Source: Escherichia coli (GTDB taxonomy: Bacteria; Pseudomonadota; Gammaproteobacteria; Enterobacterales; Enterobacteriaceae). Taken from it: a stretch of 64,000 nucleotides of DNA. Location: the NCBI RefSeq assembly GCF_030013205.1, contig NZ_CP122648.1, one strand, 5' to 3'. The number at the start of each line of letters is the position of its first letter. The stretch's first letter is position 1. The translations under genes and the position numbers were made by a program. Of this stretch, positions 2-26,748 are shown piece by piece. Below the pieces are notes generated by a model. It made no database searches. It was given only the letters and a program-made list of their open reading frames with translations, and was not told where the DNA came from.

Positions 2-1288
2 AGCGCCACACTCAAGCGCGTTCTTAATCATCCCGAAGAGACACAAGCCCGACGCTTAATGACGCTGGAAGATATCGTCAGTGGTTATTCCAATGTGTTG
101 ATTTCCCTGGCAGATAGCCAGGGTAAAACGGTGTATCACTCCCCCGGTGCGCCGGATATCCGCGAGTTTACGCGTGACGCCATACCCGATAAAGACACGC
201 GGGGCGGCGAGGTGTATCTCCTTTCCGGCCCGACGATTATGATGCCGGGCCACGGTCACGGGCATATGGAACACAGCAACTGGCGGATGATTAACTTGCC
301 GGTTGGCCCGTTGGTGGACGGCAAACCGATTTATACGCTCTACATCGCGCTTTCGATCGATTTTCATCTTCATTACATAAATGATTTGATGAATAAACTT
401 ATTATGACCGCATCGATCATCAGCATCCTGATCGTCTTTATCGTGCTGTTGGCGGTACATAAAGGTCACGCACCGATCCGCAGCGTCAGCCGTCAAATCC
501 AGAACATTACCTCGAAAGATCTCGACGTTCGCCTTGACCCGCAGACCGTGCCGATTGAGCTGGAACAGCTGGTACTGTCGTTCAACCATATGATCGAGCG
601 TATTGAGGATGTCTTTACTCGCCAGTCCAATTTCTCAGCGGATATCGCTCACGAAATTCGTACACCAATTACGAATCTCATAACGCAAACCGAAATCGCC
701 CTCAGCCAGTCACGCAGCCAGAAGGAGCTGGAAGATGTGCTCTACTCTAATCTCGAAGAGCTGACGCGAATGGCGAAAATGGTCAGCGATATGCTGTTTC
801 TCGCCCAGGCCGATAACAACCAGCTAATCCCCGAAAAGAAAATGCTCAACCTGGCGGATGAAATCGGCAAAGTGTTCGATTTTTTCGAGGCGCTAGCGGA
901 AGATCGCGGCGTGGAACTGCGGTTTGTTGGTGACGAGTGTCAGGTTGCGGGCGATCCGCTGATGCTGCGTCGGGCGTTAAGCAACCTGCTTTCGAACGCC
1001 CTGCGTTATACGCCGCCCGGAGAGGCGATTGTAGTGCGCTGCCAGACGGTCGATCACCAGGTGCAAGTTTCCGTCGAAAACCCCGGTACGCCCATTGCGC
1101 CCGAGCACTTACCGCGATTGTTTGACCGTTTCTACCGCGTTGACCCCTCCCGCCAGCGAAAAGGCGAAGGTAGCGGTATTGGGCTGGCGATAGTGAAATC
1201 GATTGTTGTCGCGCATAAAGGCACGGTTGCAGTAACGTCAGATGCTCGGGGGACAAGGTTTGTGATTATGCTGCCGGAGAGAGAGTGA
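2..1288 (+). CDS. cusS: Copper/silver-responsive sensor histidine kinase, 3' portion (5' end lies outside the window)
   Basis: Frame open from position 2 with no upstream stop; translation shows a TM segment, a HAMP-like linker, an H-box (SADIAHEIRTP) and an ATPase domain (GSGIGLAIVKS); position next to nfrB matches the K-12 map. Confidence 0.85.
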   Translation, partial: SATLKRVLNHPEETQARRLMTLEDIVSGYSNVLISLADSQGKTVYHSPGAPDIREFTRDAIPDKDTRGGEVYLLSGPTIMMPGHGHGHMEHSNWRMINLPVGPLVDGKPIYTLYIALSIDFHLHYINDLMNKLIMTASIISILIVFIVLLAVHKGHAPIRSVSRQIQNITSKDLDVRLDPQTVPIELEQLVLSFNHMIERIEDVFTRQSNFSADIAHEIRTPITNLITQTEIALSQSRSQKELEDVLYSNLEELTRMAKMVSDMLFLAQADNNQLIPEKKMLNLADEIGKVFDFFEALAEDRGVELRFVGDECQVAGDPLMLRRALSNLLSNALRYTPPGEAIVVRCQTVDHQVQVSVENPGTPIAPEHLPRLFDRFYRVDPSRQRKGEGSGIGLAIVKSIVVAHKGTVAVTSDARGTRFVIMLPERE

Positions 1289-1644
1289 TTATTAAGTTCA
1301 AATTCAGGGCGTGGTGCATCACCTCCTGGTATTGTTGATCAACAAATTAGAGAAAAACTTATTAAACATATGAAATATCGAAGGCTTTTATTTTTCAAAG
1401 TTTCACGAGATGTTTGTATATGAAACTTAGTTAAATCTGTGTTTCTTCCAATTGTAGATCACAATGCCCTTTCTAAATTTTCATCGTTATAAACAAGCCA
1501 TCTATCATATAAAGCAATGAATAATTTAATCGCGATTAATCATCATTAATTGTTATATTATTCACTCAATCTATTTATCAAGTGAATTTGATAAATTCCT
1601 AATTTAAAATATCCACTATTGAGCCAGTATTTAACAACGTTAAG

Positions 1645-1672
1645 ATGTGCAATGTGCAATGTGCAATGTGCA
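1645..1672. repeat. Perfect tandem heptanucleotide repeat (ATGTGCA) x4
   Basis: Read directly: atgtgca repeated four times inside the AT-rich 750-bp leader upstream of vgrG. Confidence 0.9.
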
Positions 1673-2038
1673 GATCATGTTATCAGGGTGGAGCGGTAGC
1701 ATATATTTCTTATGCAATCATTCATTTTAATAATGTTAATTGGATTATTTATTGCTGTGAATAAAAATATATTATGAATATTGGTTTAACTTTGCGTTTT
1801 TGTTACTCGTTGTGATATGCGTACCTGTCCTGAATAACGCCAAGAAACAAGAGGTTGAGCTTGTGATTATTTTTTTGACTGAACAGACACCCGTTTCTGT
1901 AAAGTAATATTTAAACAAAATTCTCACATAACCATAGCATTTTCTGTTCCTTCCCTAATAACGTCTGAAGTCGTCCCGCTTATCACATTATCCGCAGTTG
2001 TACGGTACGGATCATTATTCATTTTACTGGAGGTTGCT

Positions 2039-3925
2039 ATGTCAACCGGATTACGTTTCACACTGGAAGTGGACGGCCTGCCGCCGGATGCTTTTGCGGT
2101 GGTTTCCTTTCATCTGAACCAGTCACTCTCTTCGCTCTTTTCCCTCGATCTCTCCCTGGTCAGCCAGCAGTTTCTCTCCCTTGAATTTGCGCAGGTGCTG
2201 GACAAAATGGCCTACCTGACGATATGGCAGGGCGATGAAGTACAGCGCCGGGTGAAAGGCGTGGTGACCTGGTTTGAACTCGGGGAGAACGACAAAAACC
2301 AGATGCTGTACAGCATGAAGGTGCACCCGCCGCTGTGGCGTGCCGGTCTGCGCCAGAACTTCCGTATCTTCCAGAACGAGGACATCAAAAGCATCCTCGG
2401 CACGATGTTGCAGGAAAACGGGGTGACCGAATGGAGTCCGCTGTTCAGCGAGCCGCATCCTTCCCGTGAGTTTTGTGTCCAGTACGGTGAGACTGATTAC
2501 GATTTCCTGTGCCGGATGGCGGCGGAGGAAGGCATCTTCTTTTATGAGGAGCATGCTTACAAAAGTACCGACCAGAGCCTGGTGCTGTGCGACACAGTCC
2601 GCCATCTGCCCGAATCTTTTGAAATCCCATGGAACCCGAACACCCGTACCGAGGTGAGCACCCTCTGCATCAGCCAGTTCCGCTACAGCGCACAAATCCG
2701 CCCTTCTTCCGTGGTGACCAAAGACTACACCTTTAAACGCCCCGGCTGGGCCGGACGTTTTGAACAGGAAGGCCAGCACCAGGACTACCAGCGCACGCAG
2801 TATGAAGTGTATGACTACCCCGGACGTTTCAAGGGTGCCCACGGGCAGAACTTTGCCCGCTGGCAGATGGACGGCTGGCGAAACAATGCAGAAACCGCGC
2901 GGGGAATGAGTCGTTCGCCGGAGATATGGCCGGGACGACGAATTGTGCTGACGGGGCATCCGCAGGCGAACCTGAACCGGGAATGGCAGGTGGTGGCAAG
3001 TGAACTGCACGGCGAACAGCCACAGGCGGTGCCAGGACGGCAGGGAGCGGGGACGGCGCTGGAGAACCATTTTGCGGTGATCCCGGCAGACAGAACATGG
3101 CGACCACAGCCGTTGCTGAAACCGCTGGTCGACGGCCCGCAGAGCGCTGTCGTGACAGGACCGGCAGGCGAGGAAATCTTCTGCGACGAACATGGTCGCG
3201 TGCGGGTGAAGTTCAACTGGGACCGTTATAACCCGGCAGACCAAGACAGTTCGTGCTGGATCCGTGTGGCACAGGCGTGGGCAGGCACCGGTTTTGGCCA
3301 CCTGGCGATACCACGTGTGGGTCAGGAAGTCATTGTGGACTTCCTCAACGGCGATCCGGACCAGCCGATCATTATGGGGCGCACCTACCACCAGGAAAAC
3401 CGCCCCCCCGGCAGCCTGCCGGGAACAAAGACGCAGATGACCATCCGCTCCAAAACGTACATGGGCAGCGGATTTAATGAGCTGAAGTTTGATGATGCGA
3501 CAGGGAGAGAACAGGTCTACATCCACGCGCAGAAGAACATGGATACCGAAGTGCTCAACGACCGTACCACCACCGTAAAACACGATCACCGCGAAACCGT
3601 AAAAAATGACCAGACGGTCACGATCCAGGAAGGTAACCGCCTTCTTACGGTGGAAAAAGGCCACAAGATCACCGGAGTACTGAAAGGGTCTTTATCTGAG
3701 GATGTCTTTCAGGACAGAGGCACGATTGCCGGTTCGGTGCATGTTGACGCTGTAAACAATGGTGGCGAAGGCGACGGTATACAGGCTTATACGGCGATTA
3801 AGGAAATTTTGCTGGCCGTGGAGGAAAGCAAAATTGCGCTGACGCCGGATGGCATTCAGCTACAGGTCGGGGAATCGACGGTACCGGATCACAGGTGTCA
3901 GTCACACCGACGGGATCCGGCTTAA
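2039..3925 (+). CDS. vgrG: VgrG-family type VI secretion spike protein, apparently C-terminally truncated
   Basis: 628-aa ORF with a GGAGG ribosome-binding site; N-terminus MSTGLRFTLEVDGLPPDAF typical of E. coli VgrG; gp27-like and gp5 OB-fold regions recognisable; ORF ends shortly after the start of the beta-helix repeat region and overlaps the Rhs ORF in another frame. Confidence 0.85.
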   Translation: MSTGLRFTLEVDGLPPDAFAVVSFHLNQSLSSLFSLDLSLVSQQFLSLEFAQVLDKMAYLTIWQGDEVQRRVKGVVTWFELGENDKNQMLYSMKVHPPLWRAGLRQNFRIFQNEDIKSILGTMLQENGVTEWSPLFSEPHPSREFCVQYGETDYDFLCRMAAEEGIFFYEEHAYKSTDQSLVLCDTVRHLPESFEIPWNPNTRTEVSTLCISQFRYSAQIRPSSVVTKDYTFKRPGWAGRFEQEGQHQDYQRTQYEVYDYPGRFKGAHGQNFARWQMDGWRNNAETARGMSRSPEIWPGRRIVLTGHPQANLNREWQVVASELHGEQPQAVPGRQGAGTALENHFAVIPADRTWRPQPLLKPLVDGPQSAVVTGPAGEEIFCDEHGRVRVKFNWDRYNPADQDSSCWIRVAQAWAGTGFGHLAIPRVGQEVIVDFLNGDPDQPIIMGRTYHQENRPPGSLPGTKTQMTIRSKTYMGSGFNELKFDDATGREQVYIHAQKNMDTEVLNDRTTTVKHDHRETVKNDQTVTIQEGNRLLTVEKGHKITGVLKGSLSEDVFQDRGTIAGSVHVDAVNNGGEGDGIQAYTAIKEILLAVEESKIALTPDGIQLQVGESTVPDHRCQSHRRDPA

Positions 3926-6900
3926 ACTGACGTACCACGCCAGCGGCTACCTGAAAGCCATTCACCGCACGGATAACGGCATACAGACGCTGGCGACCTA
4001 CGAACAGGATGCGCGGGGGCGGCTGACAGAAGCGGATGCGCGGCTGGACTACCACCTGTTTTATGAGTACGACGCTGCGGACCGGATCATCCGCTGGTCC
4101 GATAACGACCAGACGTGGAGCCGTTTCACCTACGATGAACAGGGCCGGTGCGTGAATGTCACCGGGGCGGAGGGCTATTACAACGCCACGCTGGACTATG
4201 GTGACGGCTGCACCACCGTGACGGACGGCAAGGGCATTCACCGTTATTACTATGATCCTGACGGCAATATTCTGCGGGAAGCAGCGCCGGACGGCAGCAC
4301 CACCATGTATGAATGGGATGAATTCCATCACCTGCTGGCCCGTCACTCCCCTGCCGGGCGGGTGGAGAAATTTGAATACAACGCCGCACACGGTCAGTTA
4401 AGCCGTTACACGGCGGCAGACGGCGCGGAGTGGCAGTACCGCTATGATGAGCGCGGCCTGCTCAGCAACATCACCGACCCTGCCGGGCAGACGTGGACAC
4501 AGCAGTGTGATGAACGCGGCCTGCCGGTAAGTCTGGTGTCGCCACAGGGCGAAGAGACCCGGCTGGCATACACCGCTCAGGGGCTGCTGTCGGGAATATT
4601 CCGCCAGGATGAACGGCGTCTGGGCATAGAGTACGACCACCACAACCGGCCGGAAACACTCACCGACGTGATGGGCCGTGAACACCACACCGAATACAGC
4701 GGTCACGACCTGCCGGTGAAGATGCGCGGCCCCGGCGGTCAGTCAGTGCGGTTACAGTGGCAGCAGCACCATAAACTGAGCGGCATTGAACGTGCTGGAA
4801 CCGGCGCGGAAGGATTCCGCTACGACCGCCACGGCAACCTGCTGGCCTGGACGGACGGCAACGGCGTTGTCTGGACAATGGAATACGGCCCGTTTGATTT
4901 GCCGGTGGCGCGAACGGACGGTGAAGGCCACCGCTGGCAGTACCGCTACGATAAAGACACGCTGCAACTGACAGAAGTCATTAACCCGCAGGGTGAGTCA
5001 TATCTTTATGTTCTGGATAACTGCGGCCGGGTGACGGAAGAGCATGACTGGGGCGGCGTGGTCTGGCGTTACCGCTATGACGCCGATGGCCTGTGTACCG
5101 CCAGGGTCAACGGCCTGGAGGAAACCATCCTCTACAGCCGGGACGCCGCAGGCCGCCTGGCAGAAGTCATCACGCCGGAAGGCAAAACGCAGTATGCGTA
5201 TGACAAATCCGGCAGGCTTACGGGTATCTTCAGCCCGGACGGCACATCACAGCGCACCGGCTATGACGAACGCGGGCGGGTGAATGTCACCACTCAGGGC
5301 CGACGGGCCATTGAATACCACCACCCCGATGAACACACCGTCATCCGCTGTATCCTGCCACCGGAAGATGAACGCGACAGACACCCCGGTGAATCCCTGC
5401 TGAAAACCACGTACCGCTACAACGCCGCCGGAGAACTGACGGAGGTTATCCTGCCGGGGGATGAGACGCTGACGTTCAGCCGTGATGAGGCAGGACGTGA
5501 AGTGCTCCGGCACAGTAACCGGGGTTTTGCCTGTGAACAGGGCTGGAATGCAGCCGGCCAGTCTGTCAGCCAGCGCGCCGGATTTTTCCCGGAAGAAGCC
5601 ACATGGGGCGGGCTGGTTCCGTCACTGGCGCGGGAATACCGTTATGACAGCGCGGGCAATGTGTCGGCTGTCACCAGCCGGGAAGATTACGGACGGGAAA
5701 CACGGCGGGAATACCGGCTGGACCGGAACGGCCAGGTCACGGCGGTGACAGCCTCAGGCACCGGGCTGGGCTATGGCGAAGGCGATGAGTCCTATGGCTA
5801 TGACAGCTGCGGCTACCTGAAGGCGCAGTCTGCGGGCTGGCACCGGATAAGTGAAGAGACTGACCAGTATGCCGGAGGCCACCGGCTGAAACAGGCCGGA
5901 AACACGCAGTATGACTATGACGCCGCAGGCCGGATGGTCAGCCGCACCAGACACCGTGACGGCTATCGCCCGGAAACAGAGCGGTTCCGGTGGGACAGCC
6001 GTGACCAGCTGACCGGGTATTGCAGCGCACAGGGTGAGCAGTGGGAATACCGCCACGACGCCAGCGGCAGACGAACAGAGAAACGCTGCGACCGGAAGAA
6101 AATCCGCTTCACGTATCTGTGGGACGGCGACAGTATTGCGGAAATCCGGGAATACCGCGATGATAAACTGTACAGCGTACGGCACCTGGTGTTTAACGGC
6201 TTTGAGCTGATAAGCCAGCAGTTCAGCCGGGTACGGCAGGCGCATCCGTCGGTGGCCCCGCAGTGGGTGACACGGACGAATCATGCGGTGAGCGACCTGA
6301 CGGGCCGTCCGCTGATGCTCTTTAACAGTGAAGGTAAAACCGTCTGGCGACCGGGACAGACCAGCCTGTGGGGGCTGGCACTCAGCCTGCCCGCAGACAC
6401 CGGCTACCCGGACCCGCGCGGGGAACTGGACCCGGAAGCCGACCCCGGCCTGCTGTATGCGGGACAGTGGCAGGATGCAGAATCCGGGCTGTGCTATAAC
6501 CGGTTCCGGTATTACGAGCCGGAAACCGGGATGTACCTGGTGAGTGATCCGCTGGGGTTGCTGGGGGGTGAGCAGACTTACCGGTATGTGCCAAATCCGT
6601 GTGGGTGGGTTGATCCGCTGGGATTGGCTGCAAGTTCTAAAATCAGCAGTTTGATGGACTATATTGGCGATGGTCGTCGTGTTAGTGGGCATACGGGTTT
6701 CCTGGATGGGGTTCGTTTATCACGTAGTCAAATAAACAATATTGCTAAAGAAATGGAGAAGCTAGGAATTAAAGTAATAAGGAAAGCAGATAAATATTTG
6801 CCACCAAATGCTAGGGCAGCTTTTGATTATGGCCTTCGCAATATTTATCTTAGGAAAAATGCCACCTTATATGAGGTGTATCATGAAGTGATTCATGCTA

Positions 6901-7079
6901 AGCAATTTGCGAAAATTGGACGAGAAGCATACGAAGCACTAGGACGTTTATCTAGGGAGGAACACGTTCTAAATGAAATATTAAAAAGTAAAAATTTATT
7001 CAATGAAGCGGAAATAGCTCATGCCATAAAATATGTTGAGGGATTGAGAGAAAAATTCATGATGGGACTAATAAATTGA
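3849..7079 (+). CDS. Rhs-family YD-repeat protein lacking the usual N-terminal region, with a C-terminal HExxH-containing tip
   Basis: 1076-aa ORF full of YD repeats (e.g. RYDxxGRL, YxYDxxG); core ends in the hallmark PNPCGWVDPLGL motif (~6590-6630), followed by a ~149-aa AT-rich tip containing HEVIH (6882-6896). The first ATG is inside the repeat region and no PAAR-like N-terminus is present, so this may be a fragment or pseudogene. Confidence 0.8.
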   Translation: MAFSYRSGNRRYRITGVSHTDGIRLKLTYHASGYLKAIHRTDNGIQTLATYEQDARGRLTEADARLDYHLFYEYDAADRIIRWSDNDQTWSRFTYDEQGRCVNVTGAEGYYNATLDYGDGCTTVTDGKGIHRYYYDPDGNILREAAPDGSTTMYEWDEFHHLLARHSPAGRVEKFEYNAAHGQLSRYTAADGAEWQYRYDERGLLSNITDPAGQTWTQQCDERGLPVSLVSPQGEETRLAYTAQGLLSGIFRQDERRLGIEYDHHNRPETLTDVMGREHHTEYSGHDLPVKMRGPGGQSVRLQWQQHHKLSGIERAGTGAEGFRYDRHGNLLAWTDGNGVVWTMEYGPFDLPVARTDGEGHRWQYRYDKDTLQLTEVINPQGESYLYVLDNCGRVTEEHDWGGVVWRYRYDADGLCTARVNGLEETILYSRDAAGRLAEVITPEGKTQYAYDKSGRLTGIFSPDGTSQRTGYDERGRVNVTTQGRRAIEYHHPDEHTVIRCILPPEDERDRHPGESLLKTTYRYNAAGELTEVILPGDETLTFSRDEAGREVLRHSNRGFACEQGWNAAGQSVSQRAGFFPEEATWGGLVPSLAREYRYDSAGNVSAVTSREDYGRETRREYRLDRNGQVTAVTASGTGLGYGEGDESYGYDSCGYLKAQSAGWHRISEETDQYAGGHRLKQAGNTQYDYDAAGRMVSRTRHRDGYRPETERFRWDSRDQLTGYCSAQGEQWEYRHDASGRRTEKRCDRKKIRFTYLWDGDSIAEIREYRDDKLYSVRHLVFNGFELISQQFSRVRQAHPSVAPQWVTRTNHAVSDLTGRPLMLFNSEGKTVWRPGQTSLWGLALSLPADTGYPDPRGELDPEADPGLLYAGQWQDAESGLCYNRFRYYEPETGMYLVSDPLGLLGGEQTYRYVPNPCGWVDPLGLAASSKISSLMDYIGDGRRVSGHTGFLDGVRLSRSQINNIAKEMEKLGIKVIRKADKYLPPNARAAFDYGLRNIYLRKNATLYEVYHEVIHAKQFAKIGREAYEALGRLSREEHVLNEILKSKNLFNEAEIAHAIKYVEGLREKFMMGLIN

Positions 7080-7327
7080 TAAAACATAACAAAATAACTA
7101 TCGAAATGGCTCTTGACTTGGCTCGGCGTGAGTTAGAGTTAAGGGAAATTCCTTATATTAAAAATAGTCTACATGCCAATTACAGCTATAAATCTATTAG
7201 TATTGGTTCTAAGCAAGGTTGGTTAATTTCAGCGAAATTAAAAGTCCCTGAAACTTTTGAGCCTGATATGATATTTATTGAGATATCTGACCCAGAAGGT
7301 TTTATTAATATTCCTGATGTATTATAA
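7076..7327 (+). CDS. Small ORF immediately downstream of the Rhs tip; candidate cognate immunity protein
   Basis: 83-aa ORF with a TTG start overlapping the Rhs stop (alternative ATG at 7106); AT-rich like the toxin tip; position is the classic rhs-immunity arrangement. Function inferred from context only. Confidence 0.45.
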   Translation: MIKHNKITIEMALDLARRELELREIPYIKNSLHANYSYKSISIGSKQGWLISAKLKVPETFEPDMIFIEISDPEGFINIPDVL

Positions 7328-7441
7328 ACTACGTTAGAGGTTTTGTTATAAGGTAATCGGTTTCTTTACAGACCGCTGGCGTACATCGCACAGAGGCTGC
7401 TAACAGGGATATTCCTGCCTGGATGAACGCAAGGCAAGATC

Positions 7442-7753
7442 ATGGAAATAGTGATATACATCACTATTTCCATCCTGATTTTAGCTATCGCATTAATAAA
7501 ACAGCGGATGTTAGCCAATATCGAAACCAGTAACCCGTATCACGCCCAGTACATCCTGCGCCGCCGCGATGATTACCTGGTGCTGTTCGACCGTGATGCC
7601 CTGAGCTGCCGCTTCTTTTATGACGCCTTTCCGGGAATGCGTCTGCGCCACCAGGTGACCGGCGATACCGACGATGACCGCCTGGCACACAGCCCCGCAG
7701 ACCGGATGTATACAGGGAAAGATCATCAGAAGTACACTTTTTGTACTAAATAA
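7442..7753 (+). CDS. Hypothetical 103-aa ORF with hydrophobic N-terminus; possible orphan fragment
   Basis: ORF track; N-terminal 30 codons AT-rich and hydrophobic, remainder GC-rich; no recognisable motif. Confidence 0.25.
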   Translation: MEIVIYITISILILAIALIKQRMLANIETSNPYHAQYILRRRDDYLVLFDRDALSCRFFYDAFPGMRLRHQVTGDTDDDRLAHSPADRMYTGKDHQKYTFCTK

Positions 7754-7789
7754 TTCACATTTTATGTTTAAAAATTGAGATATTCCTCA

Positions 7790-9010
7790 TTACCTGAAGC
7801 TGTTTTTTATTGCTTATACATGATCAAATACTCCTTACATAATTAAGGAGAACAAAATGGAACTTAAAAAATTGATGGAACATATTTCTATTATTCCCGA
7901 TTACAGACAAGCCTGGAAAGTGGAACATAAATTATCGGATATTCTATTGTTGACTATTTGTGCCGTTATTTCTGGTGCGGAAGATTGGGAAGATATAGAG
8001 GATTTTGGGGAAACACATCTCGATTTTTTGAAGCAATATGGTGATTTTGAAAATGGTATTCCTGTTCACGATACCATTGCCAGAGTTGTATCCTGTATCA
8101 GTCCTGCAAAATTTCACGAGTGCTTTATTAACTGGATGCGTGACTGCCATTCTTCAGATGATAAAGACGTCATTGCAATTGATGGAAAAACGCTCCGGCA
8201 CTCTTATGACAAGAGTCGCCGCAGGGGAGCGATTCATGTCATTAGTGCGTTCTCAACAATGCACAGTCTGGTCATCGGACAGATCAGGACGGATGAGAAA
8301 TCCAATGAGATTACAGCTATCCCAGAACTTCTTAACATGCTGGATATTAAAGGAAAAATCATCACAACTGATGCGATGGGTTGCCAGAAAGATATTGCAG
8401 AGAAGATACAAAAACAGGGAGGTGATTATTTATTCGCGGTAAAAGGAAACCAGGGGCGGCTAAATAAAGCCTTCGAGGAAAAATTTCCGCTGAAAGAATT
8501 AAATAATCCAGAGCATGACAGTTACGCAATGAGTGAAAAGAGTCACGGCAGAGAAGAAATCCGTCTTCACATTGTTTGCGATGTCCCTGATGAACTTATT
8601 GATTTCACGTTTGAATGGAAAGGTCTGAAGAAATTATGCGTGGCAGTCTCCTTTCGGTCAATAATAGCAGAACAAAAGAAAGAGCCAGAAATGACGGTCA
8701 GATATTATATTAGTTCTGCTGATTTAACCGCAGAGAAGTTCGCCACAGCAATCCGAAACCACTGGCACGTGGAGAATAAGCTGCACTGGCGTCTGGACGT
8801 GGTAATGAATGAAGACGACTGCAAAATAAGAAGAGGAAATGCAGCAGAATTATTTTCAGGGATACGGCACATCGCTATTAATATTTTGACGAATGATAAG
8901 GTATTCAAGGCAGGGTTAAGACGTAAGATGCGAAAAGCAGCCATGGACAGAAACTATCTGGCGTCAGTCCTTGCGGGGAGCGGGCTTTCGTAATCTTGCC
9001 CTGCCTGCTC
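7790..9010. mobile_element. H-repeat (ISAs1-family) element; boundaries approximate
   Basis: Contains the 378-aa H-repeat transposase gene; this type of element is known to accompany Rhs elements. Ends were not mapped. Confidence 0.6.
7857..8993 (+). CDS. ISAs1-family (H-repeat-associated) transposase
   Basis: 378-aa ORF with AAGGAG ribosome-binding site; sequence [32 protein letters not shown] matches the YhhI/YdcC H-rpt protein family as I recall it. Confidence 0.85.
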
Positions 9011-9263
9011 ACCTCCTCCAGGCACTTCCACTACATGATGACCTGCTCGGTGCCACCGCTCCTTTTCACTATGACGTTAACCTCCCTGTCCCAGGACACC
9101 ATGCTTTTGTCTACATTCTACGCAAACGGCAACTTTTATAACCAGTGTAAAAATAACGTGCCGCAATAGTCATACCTATTAATGGTAAAAAGCTGTCACA
9201 ATTCATAAAAAACCTTAATATACGCCACCCTAAACATAACCAGCGTTAATGTAAGGTTTTTGT

Positions 9264-11501
9264 GTGGACTGGCTTCTTGATGTTTTTGCTACCTGGCTCT
9301 ACGGCTTAAAAGTAATCGCGATAACGTTAGCGGTCATCATGTTCATCAGCGGGCTGGACGATTTTTTTATTGATGTCGTCTACTGGGTACGCCGCATTAA
9401 ACGCAAGTTGAGTGTTTATCGCCGCTACCCGCGAATGAGTTACCGCGAACTGTATAAACCAGATGAAAAACCGTTAGCGATTATGGTTCCGGCGTGGAAT
9501 GAAACGGGCGTCATCGGCAATATGGCCGAGCTGGCGGCGACCACGCTCGACTATGAAAACTATCATATCTTTGTTGGCACCTACCCCAACGACCCCGATA
9601 CTCAGCGTGATGTTGACGAAGTGTGCGCTCGCTTCCCGAATGTGCATAAGGTAGTCTGCGCGCGACCTGGCCCCACCAGCAAAGCCGACTGCCTGAACAA
9701 CGTGCTGGACGCCATCACCCAGTTTGAGCGTAGCGCCAATTTCGCTTTTGCTGGTTTTATTCTGCATGACGCCGAAGATGTGATTTCACCGATGGAATTG
9801 CGTCTGTTCAACTATCTGGTCGAGCGTAAAGATCTGATTCAGATCCCGGTGTATCCGTTCGAACGCGAATGGACGCACTTCACCAGCATGACTTACATTG
9901 ATGAGTTTTCAGAACTGCATGGCAAAGATGTTCCGGTGCGTGAAGCCCTCGCCGGACAAGTGCCCAGCGCAGGCGTCGGTACCTGTTTCAGCCGCCGCGC
10001 CGTGACCGCACTGTTAGCTGACGGTGACGGTATTGCTTTCGACGTGCAGAGTCTTACTGAAGATTACGACATTGGTTTCCGCCTGAAAGAAAAAGGTATG
10101 ACGGAAATTTTTGTCCGTTTTCCGGTGGTGGACGAAGCCAAAGAACGCGAGCAGCGTAAATTTTTACAGCACGCGCGGACGTCAAACATGATCTGCGTGC
10201 GCGAATATTTCCCCGATACCTTTTCGACTGCGGTTCGACAAAAATCTCGCTGGATCATCGGCATTGTTTTCCAGGGCTTTAAAACCCACAAATGGACCTC
10301 CAGCCTGACGCTGAACTACTTTCTCTGGCGCGACCGCAAAGGGGCAATCAGTAACTTTGTCAGCTTCCTCGCGATGCTGGTGATGATCCAGCTTTTGCTG
10401 TTACTGGCGTATGAAAGTTTGTGGCCCGATGCCTGGCATTTCCTTTCTATTTTCAGCGGCAGCGCATGGTTAATGACCCTGCTGTGGCTAAACTTTGGTT
10501 TAATGGTTAACCGCATCGTGCAGCGGGTGATTTTTGTCACTGGCTACTACGGTCTGACGCAGGGGCTGCTATCTGTCCTGCGTCTTTTCTGGGGCAACCT
10601 GATTAACTTCATGGCCAACTGGCGCGCGTTAAAACAGGTACTTCAACACGGCGATCCACGTCGCGTCGCGTGGGATAAAACAACGCATGACTTCCCCAGC
10701 GTGACTGGCGATACCCGCTCGTTGCGTCCGTTAGGTCAAATCCTGCTGGAAAATCAGGTCATCACTGAAGAACAACTCGATACAGCACTGCGTAATCGCG
10801 TCGAAGGTCTACGCCTGGGCGGTTCAATGCTGATGCAGGGGCTGATTAGCGCCGAACAGCTGGCACAGGCGCTGGCAGAGCAAAACAGCGTGGCGTGGGA
10901 GTCGATCGACGCCTGGCAGATCCCTTCATCACTGATTGCCGAAATGCCGGCCTCCGTGGCGCTGCATTATGCAGTGCTGCCGCTGCGTCTGGAAAATGAT
11001 GAGTTAATTGTCGGCAGTGAAGATGGTATTGACCCGGTTTCGCTGGCAGCCCTGACGCGTAAAGTCGGACGCAAAGTGCGTTACGTCATTGTTCTGCGGG
11101 GACAAATTGTCACGGGGTTACGCCACTGGTATGCGCGCCGACGCGGTCACGATCCGCGGGCAATGTTGTACAATGCGGTTCAGCATCAGTGGCTCACGGA
11201 ACAGCAGGCCGGTGAAATCTGGCGGCAATATGTGCCGCATCAGTTCCTGTTCGCCGAAATACTGACCACGCTCGGTCATATTAATCGTTCAGCAATTAAC
11301 GTGTTGTTATTGCGCCATGAACGTAGTTCTCTGCCGCTCGGCAAGTTTTTGGTCACCGAAGGCGTTATCAGCCAGGAAACGTTGGATCGCGTCCTGACAA
11401 TTCAACGCGAATTACAAGTTTCGATGCAATCACTATTACTCAAAGCAGGTTTAAACACAGAACAGGTTGCGCAACTGGAGTCCGAAAATGAAGGAGAATA
11501 A
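9264..11501 (+). CDS. nfrB: Bacteriophage N4 adsorption protein B (inner-membrane glycosyltransferase family 2)
   Basis: 745-aa ORF with GTG start, N-terminal TM helices; length and neighbourhood (nfrA immediately downstream) match K-12 NfrB. Confidence 0.85.
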   Translation: MDWLLDVFATWLYGLKVIAITLAVIMFISGLDDFFIDVVYWVRRIKRKLSVYRRYPRMSYRELYKPDEKPLAIMVPAWNETGVIGNMAELAATTLDYENYHIFVGTYPNDPDTQRDVDEVCARFPNVHKVVCARPGPTSKADCLNNVLDAITQFERSANFAFAGFILHDAEDVISPMELRLFNYLVERKDLIQIPVYPFEREWTHFTSMTYIDEFSELHGKDVPVREALAGQVPSAGVGTCFSRRAVTALLADGDGIAFDVQSLTEDYDIGFRLKEKGMTEIFVRFPVVDEAKEREQRKFLQHARTSNMICVREYFPDTFSTAVRQKSRWIIGIVFQGFKTHKWTSSLTLNYFLWRDRKGAISNFVSFLAMLVMIQLLLLLAYESLWPDAWHFLSIFSGSAWLMTLLWLNFGLMVNRIVQRVIFVTGYYGLTQGLLSVLRLFWGNLINFMANWRALKQVLQHGDPRRVAWDKTTHDFPSVTGDTRSLRPLGQILLENQVITEEQLDTALRNRVEGLRLGGSMLMQGLISAEQLAQALAEQNSVAWESIDAWQIPSSLIAEMPASVALHYAVLPLRLENDELIVGSEDGIDPVSLAALTRKVGRKVRYVIVLRGQIVTGLRHWYARRRGHDPRAMLYNAVQHQWLTEQQAGEIWRQYVPHQFLFAEILTTLGHINRSAINVLLLRHERSSLPLGKFLVTEGVISQETLDRVLTIQRELQVSMQSLLLKAGLNTEQVAQLESENEGE

Positions 11502-16295: not shown

Positions 16296-16340
16296 AGGAC
16301 AAAGCGGAAACGGATAAGACGGGGATAAATGAAGAAGAAA

Positions 16341-16385
16341 TGGCGCGCCCTGCAGGATTCGAACCTGCGGCCCACGACTTAGAAG
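16341..16385. repeat. Direct repeat of the tRNA-Arg 3' end (distal att site of the argU island)
   Basis: 45 nt identical to 26672-26716 (the 3' part of argU). Confidence 0.9.
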
Positions 16386-16808
16386 TTCCTAGAACGACAT
16401 TTTAAGTCAACAACTTACCACGCCATCTCTGCGCTCACACGTCCCACTACCTCAAAACATGTAAAGCCTTGCAAGCCATTGTGAGGCCTTATGTGTCTCA
16501 GTTTTGTCCCTCTTTTTTGTACTAAAAAACATAGTAATTGAGGATAAACCTCATGCTATTTTCGCTTATATGCCTCTAAAGGCATGGCACTTAAATAGAT
16601 AAAAGCACCACAAAAGCATAAAAAAACCACACAGTAAAACCACAATATGAAACAATAACAGATAATTAAACTAAAAACAGATAGCGCATTGTGATAATCA
16701 TTCAATACTAAACAAAATATAAACAGTGGAGCAATATGTAATTGACTCATTAAGTTAGATATAAAAAATACATATTCAATCATTAAAACGATTGAATGGA
16801 GAACTTTT

Positions 16809-26656: not shown

Positions 26657-26671
26657 CTGATTGAATTGTAA

Positions 26672-26748
26672 TGGCGCGCCCTGCAGGATTCGAACCTGCG
26701 GCCCACGACTTAGAAGGTCGTTGCTCTATCCAACTGAGCTAAGGGCGC
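26672..26748 (-). tRNA. argU: tRNA-Arg (anticodon UCU)
   Basis: 77-nt sequence whose reverse complement is GCGCCCTTAGCTCAGTTGGATAGAGCAACGACCTTCTAAGTCGTGGGCCGCAGGTTCGAATCCTGCAGGGCGCGCCA; cloverleaf and UCU anticodon readable by eye. Confidence 0.93.

Follow-up and report, generated by a model that had tools for sequence, protein, structure and literature searches.

The region between an Rhs immunity-like ORF and an ISEc1 transposase gene in Escherichia coli is probably a stack of Rhs and H-repeat remnants

The DNA analyzed here, hereafter the window, is a 64,000-nucleotide stretch of an Escherichia coli contig (NZ_CP122648.1, assembly GCF_030013205.1). The part of interest lies in the E. coli cusS-nfrB Rhs island, with a clade IV rhs gene at "position 4" of Jackson et al. 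(2009, BMC Genomics 10:584, PMC2935791). The gene order, common to the window, L001, and L002, is vgrG - (DcrB-like) - rhs - small ORF - fragment. The C terminus of the Rhs protein matches PF15640 (Tox-MPTase4, 1.6e-33), and the small AT-rich ORF downstream of it, presumed to encode the immunity partner, has no Pfam match; a 70-aa version of it is annotated by PGAP in L001. Between this ORF and the transposase gene of ISEc1 there are 529 bp (7328-7856), which we compared with 5,426 E. coli genomes. The region consists of six pieces, i.e. a 42-bp spacer, a 60-bp scrap of Rhs core, the terminus of an H-repeat, 47 bp, a 182-bp fragment of Rhs core, and the left end of ISEc1 (Table 1), and is carried whole by just 821 of the genomes compared. 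When the region is used as query, positions 204-385 match Rhs cores (91.7-95%) and positions 385-529 match ISEc1 left ends in unrelated contexts. A search of 6900-9300 against Rfam with a permissive threshold gave no match.

Table 1. Features between the Rhs tip and the right end of ISEc1, in window coordinates
Feature	Coordinates	Strand	Remarks
Small AT-rich ORF, presumed immunity partner	7076..7327	+	follows the Tox-MPTase4 Rhs tip; left border of the remnant region
AT-rich 42-bp spacer	7328..7369		33% GC; accompanies the MPTase4 tip/immunity cassette in window-type, PD4, and O157 arrangements
35-codon ORF	7366..7473	-	from the other ATG of the palindrome; N terminus MEIVMYITISMILPC parallels K-12 YncO
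Rhs core scrap A	7370..7429	+	~60 bp, core near residue 780, with an indel; 56.7% GC; by nucleotide homology
Left-terminal remnant of a divergent yncI-type H-repeat (ISAs1 family)	7430..7483	+	terminal CAAGGCAAGATCA, then the palindrome 7442-7473
103-codon ORF	7442..7753	+	codons 1-30, H-repeat-end remnant and 47-bp AT-rich stretch; codons 31-90, Rhs core fragment B; codons 91-103, ISEc1 left end
Perfect palindrome, 14-bp stem, 4-nt loop	7442..7473		arms 7442-7455/7460-7473, 14/14 complementary
47-bp AT-rich stretch	7484..7530		position expected for the H-repeat 5' leader; no detectable homology
Rhs core fragment B (GC-rich block)	7531..7712	+	5' stump of a dissociated (orphan) core, residues ~475-535 of the 1,620-aa Rhs; by homology
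ISEc1 (H-repeat, ISAs1 family)	7713..9003	+	1,291 bp, apparently intact; left non-coding end 7713-7856, transposase 7857-8993
Palindrome agtaca-ctttt-tgtact	7731..7747		19-35 nt within ISEc1, just before the TAA at 7751-7753

The original prediction centered on a 103-aa ORF in this region, in which a hydrophobic, AT-rich start was said to be joined to a GC-rich block of ~190 bp. The ORF is present exactly as described, and its two-part composition was confirmed. Residues 1-20 have a mean Kyte-Doolittle value of +2.3 versus -0.8 for residues 31-90, an AAGG is found 7 nt 5' of the ATG, and the stop is the TAA at 7751-7753. In 100-bp windows, the GC fraction goes from 0.38-0.40 (7400-7549) to 0.55-0.64 (7500-7699) and then to 0.25-0.31 (7700-7899). 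The limits of the block, set by homology, are 7531 and 7712 (182 bp). Within them the GC content is 61.0%, the Rhs core in the same window having 61.5%, with flanks of 33-40% on the left and 27.8% on the right. Chance does not account for this step in composition, as the block can be recognized as a piece of another gene.

A nucleotide search with the GC-rich block finds matches to Rhs cores in thousands of genomes. Positions 7531-7710 are 91.7-95% identical to Rhs core, and the ORF reads them in the native Rhs frame (NPYHAQYILRRRDDYL...), with 54 of 60 residues the same as in the main core. Identity is 91.7% to L001 5314-5493, which lies within a full-length rhs (3890-8752), 92.8% to the PD4, O157, and state-A cores, and up to 95% elsewhere. 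The 16 differences from the main core are distributed 4/5/7 by codon position, a sample too small to speak on selection. Fragment B, which PGAP marks as a partial pseudogene, is located downstream of the main rhs and its partner ORF, in the same orientation and near vgrG. In the window it ends after 182 bp at ISEc1, with neither the end of the core (PxxxxDPxGL region) nor a toxin tip or an immunity ORF. In PD4 and NCTC11023, it continues into the RHS repeats and PF03527 of an orphan core, followed by a tip and two small ORFs, which bears out the suggestion that the block is a recombination remnant and a displaced orphan Rhs module. In PCP06102, the main rhs carries as its attached tip that of the PD4 orphan, with its two ORFs, and this tip module is found joined to ISEc1 in 549 genomes in all. 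The alignments thus identify 7531-7712 as the 182 bp with which a dissociated fragment of Rhs core begins. Fragments of this kind stay behind, downstream, when an older C-terminal tip is displaced by a new one (here Tox-MPTase4 with its partner ORF). A smaller piece of core, scrap A, is 80.6% identical to window 4555-4615 and to L001 6228-6288; with other cores the identity reaches 85.5% (E = 6e-8 in a search of 28 Gb). Its translation is RPLAYIAQRLLTGIF versus TRLAYTAQGLLSGIF in the core.

ISAs1-family elements have imperfect terminal inverted repeats, start with CAGGG, and are ~1.3 kb in size. The ISEc1 copy that follows fragment B encodes a 378-aa DDE transposase with PF13808 (6.8e-34) and PF01609 (5.9e-31) domains, named by PGAP as an ISAs1-like element ISEc1 family transposase. 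Positions 7712-9003 are 97.5% identical to the K-12 ydcC copy, other copies start at 7711-7714 and end at 9003 in window coordinates, and the two ends (CAGGGAAAGATCA and CAGGGCAAGATTA), which have CAGGG termini, agree at 11 of 13 positions. The original prediction had also proposed that the GC-rich block might be the edge of this element. The block would then be part of the H-repeat, either as an outer edge of ISEc1 or in a longer variant, and it does adjoin the IS without a gap. H-repeats, which have reportedly never been seen to transpose, are moreover regular components of Rhs elements (PMC3032704). We nevertheless give this explanation practically no credence. ISEc1 copies at ydcC, yhhI, and dozens more sites match only from query 383-387 (window 7710-7714), the 1,291-bp element already has matching CAGGG termini whereas the block is in-frame Rhs core, and PD4 and O157 have other DNA at the same ISEc1 terminus. 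The H-repeat edge does account for the last 13 codons of the ORF, which lie beyond the ISEc1 terminus at 7713. It is this intact left terminus that cuts fragment B on its right.

A palindrome, agtaca-ctttt-tgtact, had been pointed out at the 3' end of the ORF. It is present there, but it folds no better than chance (-4.9 kcal/mol, z = -1.35, 22/200 shuffles as good) and is not conserved, being imperfect in the PD4 copy of ISEc1 and absent in the O157 copy. Since it is neither significant nor conserved, we rejected it as an IS feature or terminator.

The AT-rich hydrophobic N terminus, to which the original prediction assigned no source, has one of its own. In a search of 28 Gb, positions 7430-7483 matched 6001-6055 of L005 from STEC005 (83.6%, E = 8e-6); an ISAs1 transposase pseudogene lies 63 bp downstream of this match. 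They are identical to the left end of K-12 yncI at 43/54 positions and to STEC005 at 45/54. Homology with yncI-type ends starts at the IS terminus, and the flanks upstream are unrelated. No second transposase continuing this element was matched in the window, the piece being a solo end of ~54-100 bp without a transposase gene. When the source IS of 7430-7530 was sought in 100,044 species genomes using a degenerate terminus pattern, only four matches were obtained, all of them short MAG contigs with the E. coli yncI/ISEc1 arrangement; none was closer than 82-85% and none covered 7484-7530. These last 47 bp have no match beyond this locus, and their ~48% identity to the yncI leader, a hand count on one alignment, is not significant. 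By homology, the AT-rich "N terminus" is the left end of another H-repeat, a divergent one of yncI type, whose terminal palindrome happens to give an ATG.

This second palindrome (7442-7473), absent from the original prediction, is at the very start of the ORF and carries an ATG on both strands. It folds strongly (-26.2 kcal/mol, z = -6.7, 0/200 shuffles as good), and the hairpin has been kept through two double changes between IS lineages. A + strand terminator scan flags it, with 14 pairs of which 4 are G-C, an A+T-rich stem, an interrupted U-run, and the tail CCTGATTTTA. The remnant may have been kept for this reason, the hairpin and its U-rich tail being a putative terminator of the rhs/immunity operon that would insulate ISEc1 and nfrB. 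The strong fold, the 14-bp stem flagged by the scan, and the persistence of the hairpin between IS lineages agree with such a role, which we consider unlikely, because only 4 pairs are G-C, the U-tract is interrupted, and O157-type strains have neither the hairpin nor an obvious substitute. That the hairpin is conserved follows from its role in the IS rather than from one played at this locus. The remnant would be without protein function, and termination of read-through from the rhs operon by the H-repeat-end hairpin is the most that it may provide.

The ORF itself might still be a genuine gene for a small membrane protein, an orphan immunity protein or one born of a fusion, with a transmembrane leader and a YD-repeat piece. 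It is intact in most of the 821 genomes with the whole 529-bp region and nearly identical in hundreds, its first 20 residues are hydrophobic, the SD-like AAGG makes translation possible, and YncO, detected in K-12, sets a precedent, as its start lies in the homologous palindrome (opposite strand). We nevertheless find a gene very improbable, since all three parts of the ORF trace to unrelated non-coding or truncated sources and the last 13 codons run on into the end of an IS. The ATG equivalent to that at 7442 meets a stop after 5 codons in native yncI-type ends. No Pfam family was found for the product, and there is no homologue outside E. coli. Its relatives amount to 21 matches of 70-179 aa, every one from E. 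coli, and a search for a long intact protein sharing its leader (MEIVIYITISILIL...) gave nothing longer than the 179-aa relative and nothing outside the species. The ORF is therefore not conserved elsewhere as a normal gene; its relatives are only fragments. Some of these are frameshifted or have lost 3 or 29 aa, PGAP makes no call for the ORF in L001, and O157-type strains have it wholly deleted. No promoter-like site was found on the + strand between 7328 and 7441. On sequence grounds, the 103-aa ORF is most likely an accidental frame over three pieces of debris and no gene.

Names in public records can mislead here. Two short relatives are called "type IV secretion protein Rhs," and short products in the same frame are annotated elsewhere as hypothetical protein and, in PD4, as RHS repeat domain-containing protein.

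ISEc1 and its right flank are common to the window, PD4, and O157 arrangements, which differ in what adjoins the left terminus. PD4 has the window arrangement plus 3,479 bp between 7712 and 7713, comprising the rest of the orphan core, the tip, and two small ORFs. In O157, 7397 is joined directly to 7713. The three left junctions seen occur in 549, 821, and roughly 300 genomes; the right junction occurs in 2,479 genomes, in which the left junctions of ~790 fall outside those described. None of the three arrangements displays a target-site duplication around ISEc1, the left flanks in the window (GGATGTATA), PD4 (GGATATTAAC), and O157 (CACAGAGGC) all differing from the right flank (CCTGCTCACC). 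This is expected if a deletion replaced the left flank. We also considered 118UI as an empty site. Its nfrB-side flank has no adjacent ISEc1, but a different IR-like sequence is found there and the locus is rearranged, so that it was rejected as a clean pre-insertion site.

The left junctions, nested on one ISEc1 anchor, look like an IS-anchored deletion series. The direction, taken from the comparison of junctions rather than from a phylogeny, would be from a longer PD4-like arrangement to that of the window. In this step ~3.5 kb (the rest of the orphan core, the tip, two small ORFs, and a spacer) would have been lost by a deletion anchored on the left end of ISEc1, and a deeper deletion from the same anchor would have produced the O157-type strains. 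The mechanism may have been intramolecular transposition of ISEc1 or recombination between two directly repeated ISEc1 copies. IS-adjacent deletion is established for IS1/IS10-type elements and is not known for ISAs1. In the form of recombination specific to this junction, insertion of a second ISEc1 at 7712/7713, within the orphan core, would have been followed by recombination with the nfrB-proximal copy and loss of the intervening DNA. A substrate of this type exists in 118UI, where two directly repeated ISEc1 copies are interleaved with tips at the same locus, and the missing target duplication fits this course of events as well as it fits adjacent deletion. We hold it to be possible, if somewhat doubtful. 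No genome was found with ISEc1 at 7712/7713 plus the downstream orphan, such a copy is absent in 5/5 long-state genomes, and three left junctions on one conserved right junction present the classic picture of IS-adjacent deletion.

The history of the orphan before this trimming appears complex. The PD4 orphan is a composite, in which a 344-bp piece (95% identity) is followed, after a jump of ~829 bp, by sequence with 99.2% identity to the resident core; it also has a frameshift. In the PD4 main gene, the core departs from that of state A solely in the ~200 bp that precede the tip. Jackson's model of a single crossover with a circular intermediate, under which the main-gene core should be of donor type everywhere past the crossover, was rejected. 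One crossover is insufficient because the PD4 main core differs in the last ~200 bp only, yet the orphan starts at residue ~475 and jumps to ~866.

We estimate at roughly 87% the probability that the DNA separating the Rhs immunity-like ORF from the transposase gene of ISEc1 is wholly made up of stacked, non-functional remnants, with the 103-aa ORF an accidental frame across three of them. The value of this reading is mainly one of annotation hygiene, and it leaves the understanding of Rhs systems and ISAs1 elements unchanged. The locus is nonetheless a clean natural example of Rhs tip arrays built by displacement and then trimmed beside an H-repeat, and ISEc1 left junctions could serve as lineage markers.

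Two wider interpretations are conceivable, both of which we regard as improbable. In the first, the yncI-type palindromic terminus would act as a portable two-way translation start. The outward strand would give YncO-like peptides, whose C termini are whatever DNA adjoins the IS. On the inward strand, a TAA-to-TAC change in this lineage would have supplied the dissociated Rhs core with a hydrophobic leader and with a start codon of its own. Were the 103-aa product, or its longer PD4 form, indeed synthesized, it would illustrate how new small membrane proteins can arise from IS ends. In the second, the series of left junctions nested at a single ISEc1 terminus would testify indirectly to active H-repeats that prune Rhs tip arrays.

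Several of the features described here have known counterparts. K-12 harbors the H-repeat (H-rpt)/ISEc1 copies ydcC and yhhI and a divergent yncI pseudogene; 7713-9003 resembles ydcC and 7430-7483 the yncI left terminus, with the difference that a target duplication is not seen at 7713-9003. YncO, a 61-aa protein among the small proteins detected in K-12 by epitope tagging (VanOrsdel et al. 2018, PMC6001520), has its start within the palindrome at the left end of the yncI H-repeat, from which it is read outward past the IS terminus. The start on the - strand of the window is homologous (MEIVMYITISMILPC versus (V)IYITIFMILPC in K-12), but past the IS terminus the two ORFs enter unrelated flanks. 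The 103-aa ORF, unlike YncO, is on the opposite strand, where native elements stop after 5 codons.

On the Rhs side, the PD4/NCTC11023 allele shares the layout of orphan rhs-CT/rhsI modules (Poole et al. 2011, PLoS Genet 7:e1002217, PMC3150448), with the fragment, located downstream of a full rhs, at the head of a partial core that is followed by a tip and small ORFs. It differs from them in that the PD4 orphan itself has the internal ~829-bp gap and the frameshift, whereas the window has lost the toxin tip and the small ORFs, so that no module remains. The closest counterparts are the dissociated Rhs fragments of Jackson et al. (PMC2935791), who reported displaced tips at the locus studied here (rhs position 4, nfrB-cusS, clade IV). 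The phenomenon is the same, with a GC-rich piece of core downstream of an attached AT-rich tip and in the orientation of the main gene, and the legend of their Figure 5 refers to strains with a downstream core fragment lacking any tip. The sections of that study drawn on here do not attribute the missing tip to the adjacent ISEc1, nor do they mention the second H-repeat end or the 60-bp scrap. Compared with the fragments they describe, which come from the 3' end of the core, that of the window is from mid-core (residues ~475-535). The remnant is ordinary and of a kind already described at this E. coli locus.

The original prediction described a 103-aa ORF (7442-7753) with an AT-rich N terminus joined to a GC-rich block, and read it as a recombination remnant, possibly a displaced orphan Rhs module. 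The ORF is present as described, and the GC step is genuine (0.55-0.64 across 7500-7699 versus 0.25-0.40 on either side). When the 529-bp region (7328-7856) was compared by megablast with 5,426 complete E. coli genomes, 5,328 were matched, at a median of 5 places each, whereas the whole stretch was found in only 821. Sampling of the hits down the ranking showed that this is because separate parts of the query have separate sources: positions 204-385 match annotated Rhs cores (91.7-95% identity), 385-529 match sequence directly 5' of transposase genes of the ISAs1 family, in numerous unrelated places, and 1-203 are confined to the cusS-nfrB locus. The suggested nucleotide search of the GC-rich block against Rhs elements thus found Rhs cores, which confirms the observation and supports its main interpretation. 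As defined by homology, the block spans 7531-7712 and has 61.0% GC, compared with 61.5% in the Rhs core of the window. In L001, a locus identical over the 529 bp, it is 91.7% identical to 5314-5493, inside a full-length 1,620-aa rhs (3890-8752), at residues ~475-535, with which the codon phase of the ORF agrees. Its translation, NPYHAQYILRRRDDYLVLFDRDALSCRFFYDAFPGMRLRHQVTGDTDDDRLAHSPADRMY, differs from the main core at 6 of 60 residues, and PGAP labels it a partial pseudogene. An additional core scrap lies at 7370-7429 (80-85.5% identical to cores, E = 6e-8 in 28 Gb searched), reading RPLAYIAQRLLTGIF versus TRLAYTAQGLLSGIF in the core.

The 3' end of the ORF belongs to ISEc1. The K-12 ydcC element aligns to 7712-9003 with 97.5% identity, ISEc1 copies at other sites end at 9003, and DNA to the left of the shared CAGGGAAAGATCA differs among the three alleles compared; the element is therefore 7713-9003 (1,291 bp). 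It has imperfect terminal repeats (CAGGGAAAGATCA/CAGGGCAAGATTA) and encodes an intact 378-aa DDE transposase. The suggestion that the ORF might be the edge of the H-repeat holds for its final 13 codons and stop, which are ISEc1 sequence, but not for the GC-rich block, which is Rhs core. Similarly, the palindrome agtaca-ctttt-tgtact is present near the 3' end of the ORF (7731-7747, 19-35 nt inside ISEc1), but its fold is weak (-4.9 kcal/mol, z = -1.35; 22 of 200 shuffles equally good) and it is not conserved, being mismatched at one position in PD4 and absent from the O157 copy.

H-repeats are classical components of Rhs elements (Hill laboratory), and the AT-rich N terminus is the end of a second one. 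A sensitive search with 7328-7535 matched 7429-7483 to STEC005, where a divergent ISAs1 transposase pseudogene, beside an RhsE-like element, lies 63 bp downstream of the hit; the yncI H-repeat pseudogene of K-12 has this same sequence as its left end. Identity of 7430-7483 to these two ends is 43-45/54 and sets in precisely at the IS terminus, where the references read CAGGGCAAGATCA and the window, from 7430, reads CAAGGCAAGATCA; upstream of it, the flanks are unrelated. Window and reference ends share a subterminal palindrome (7442-7455/7460-7473, 14/14 paired; -26.2 kcal/mol, z = -6.7), in which two pairs have other bases at both positions than in the K-12 and STEC005 copies, with pairing kept. 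Its first base starts the ATG of the ORF. Native elements have the same ATG, but there a stop closes the frame after five codons (ATG AAA ATT GTG ATR TAA), and the frame is open in the window lineage because TAC replaces this TAA. Neither H-repeat-end comparisons nor genome searches assigned a source to 7484-7530; the 7530/7531 junction joins the inside of the H-repeat remnant to mid-core.

A 35-codon minus-strand ORF (7366-7473) starts from the other ATG of the palindrome (MEIVMYITISMILPCVHPGR...), which is homologous to the start of YncO, a 61-aa K-12 protein detected by tagging (PMC6001520), and its first ~15 residues parallel those of YncO. YncO starts in the palindrome of the yncI H-repeat end, on the strand opposite to the ORF, and reads outward across the IS terminus, which suggests that an IS end encodes its N terminus. 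Four short contigs (2.7-3.5 kb) from metagenome-assembled genomes labelled Planococcaceae, Sporosarcina, Bacillota and Flavobacterium carry the E. coli yncI/ISEc1 arrangement, with the ISEc1 part 95-98% identical; the likeliest explanation is that E. coli contamination was binned with these non-enterobacterial assemblies.

Every part of the 103-aa ORF traces to a non-genic origin. It matches no Pfam family, its 21 database relatives are all E. coli products of 70-179 aa, among them variants with frameshifts or with 3-aa or 29-aa deletions, and O157-type strains lack it. A scan found no plus-strand promoter-like site upstream, and the region has no Rfam match. The evidence against a real gene outweighs that in favor, with AAGG 7 nt 5' of the ATG and the YncO precedent leaving a small door open.

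Since cusS and nfrB are only 149 bp apart in K-12, window 1267-9121 is an inserted island relative to K-12, in the order vgrG, rhs, small partner ORF, examined region and ISEc1 transposase. The site is rhs "position 4" (nfrB/cusS, clade IV) of Jackson et al. 2009 (PMC2935791), and the E. coli W genome paper (PMC3032704) gives it as b0570-b0569. Between the right end of ISEc1 and the resumption of K-12 homology lie 118 bp at 58% GC (9004-9121), which are therefore part of the island. This flank occurs in 118UI without adjoining ISEc1, preceded by ...GGAAAATGATCTCCCCTG, which when reversed (CAGGGGAGATCATTTTCC) resembles the terminus of a further H-repeat. The window also lacks 2,229 bp found in otherwise identical loci (junction 3881-3883, L001 3325-5553), comprising the last 57 bp of vgrG, a DcrB-related gene and the first ~555 rhs codons, so that its main Rhs toxin gene is decapitated. 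The core stretch matched by the GC-rich block falls inside this deletion, and the junction is shared by only 14 genomes, the 12 listed being from pig or wild boar (ETEC, O139:H1). In other strains, the nfrB gene next to the island carries a pseudogene annotation with an internal stop, namely in PD4 (L002 14416-16656) and PCP06102 (L007 12017-14254), and NCTC11023 has lost most of nfrB and nfrA (L004 14416-14635). A ~10.3-kb insertion relative to CFSAN061763 (16339-26719), bracketed by 98% identical 50-bp direct repeats (16339-16388 and 26670-26719) that are the 3' part of tRNA-Arg(TCT) (26672-26748), has the appearance of an element integrated at argU, which is the DLP12 site in K-12.

Features of the island and the four arrangements that share ISEc1 and the nfrB-side flank
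Feature	Window position	Description
cusS	end at 1288	annotation of identical locus
Main rhs tip		Tox-MPTase4, PF15640 (Pfam)
Small partner ORF	7076-7327	
ISEc1 transposase gene	7857-8993	
nfrB-nfrA	start at 9264	annotation of identical locus
State A		PCP06102: main rhs with different tip, then two small ORFs, ~820 bp, ISEc1
State B		PD4, NCTC11023; 5 genomes: main rhs with MPTase4 tip and partner ORF, then exactly 7328-7712
State C		arrangement of the window; 821 genomes: as state B but without the 3,479 bp that separate 7712 from the IS terminus
State D		O157:H7; roughly 300 genomes: MPTase4 module an orphan behind a newer tip; ISEc1 abuts 7397

The left junctions compared account for all but ~790 of the genomes with this right junction. 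In state B, 7328-7712 leads directly on into an orphan core that carries the tip seen in state A, followed by the two ORFs and the same junction with ISEc1; the state-A tip-to-ISEc1 module is found in 549 genomes, including the five of state B. Loss by IS-anchored deletion is the reading suggested by three different left junctions on a single intact IS terminus with an unchanging right junction, and the states would have followed the order A to B to C, a polarity that we infer. Alternatively, two directly repeated ISEc1 copies may have recombined. Two such copies are present at the cusS-nfrB locus of 118UI (L013 1167-4608), a would-be substrate for IS-IS recombination deleting tips; there, they alternate with small tip/immunity-like ORFs, of which one encodes a SUKH-3 domain protein. 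No target duplication surrounds ISEc1 in any state examined, which fits IS-anchored deletion and is silent on how the deletion happened.

The orphan of PD4 is composite: a piece of 344 bp shares 95% identity with the resident core (residues ~475-590), and after a jump of ~829 bp comes sequence sharing 99.2% identity with state A. Between the main core of PD4 and state A, the differences are confined to the ~200 bp nearest the tip. The single-crossover model with a circular intermediate, as set out in Jackson 2009 (PMC2935791), cannot yield both of these features; more than one event was involved.

The examined region is a remnant of an already-known type and no new kind of thing. H-repeats are listed among Rhs element components (PMC3032704), orphan rhs-CT/rhsI modules were characterized by Poole et al. 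2011 (PMC3150448), and dissociated core fragments and tips are described at this exact locus by Jackson et al. 2009 (PMC2935791). What is added here to this picture is detail: the IS-anchored loss of a tip, as it appears from the junctions compared, the end of a second H-repeat and a core scrap of 60 bp.
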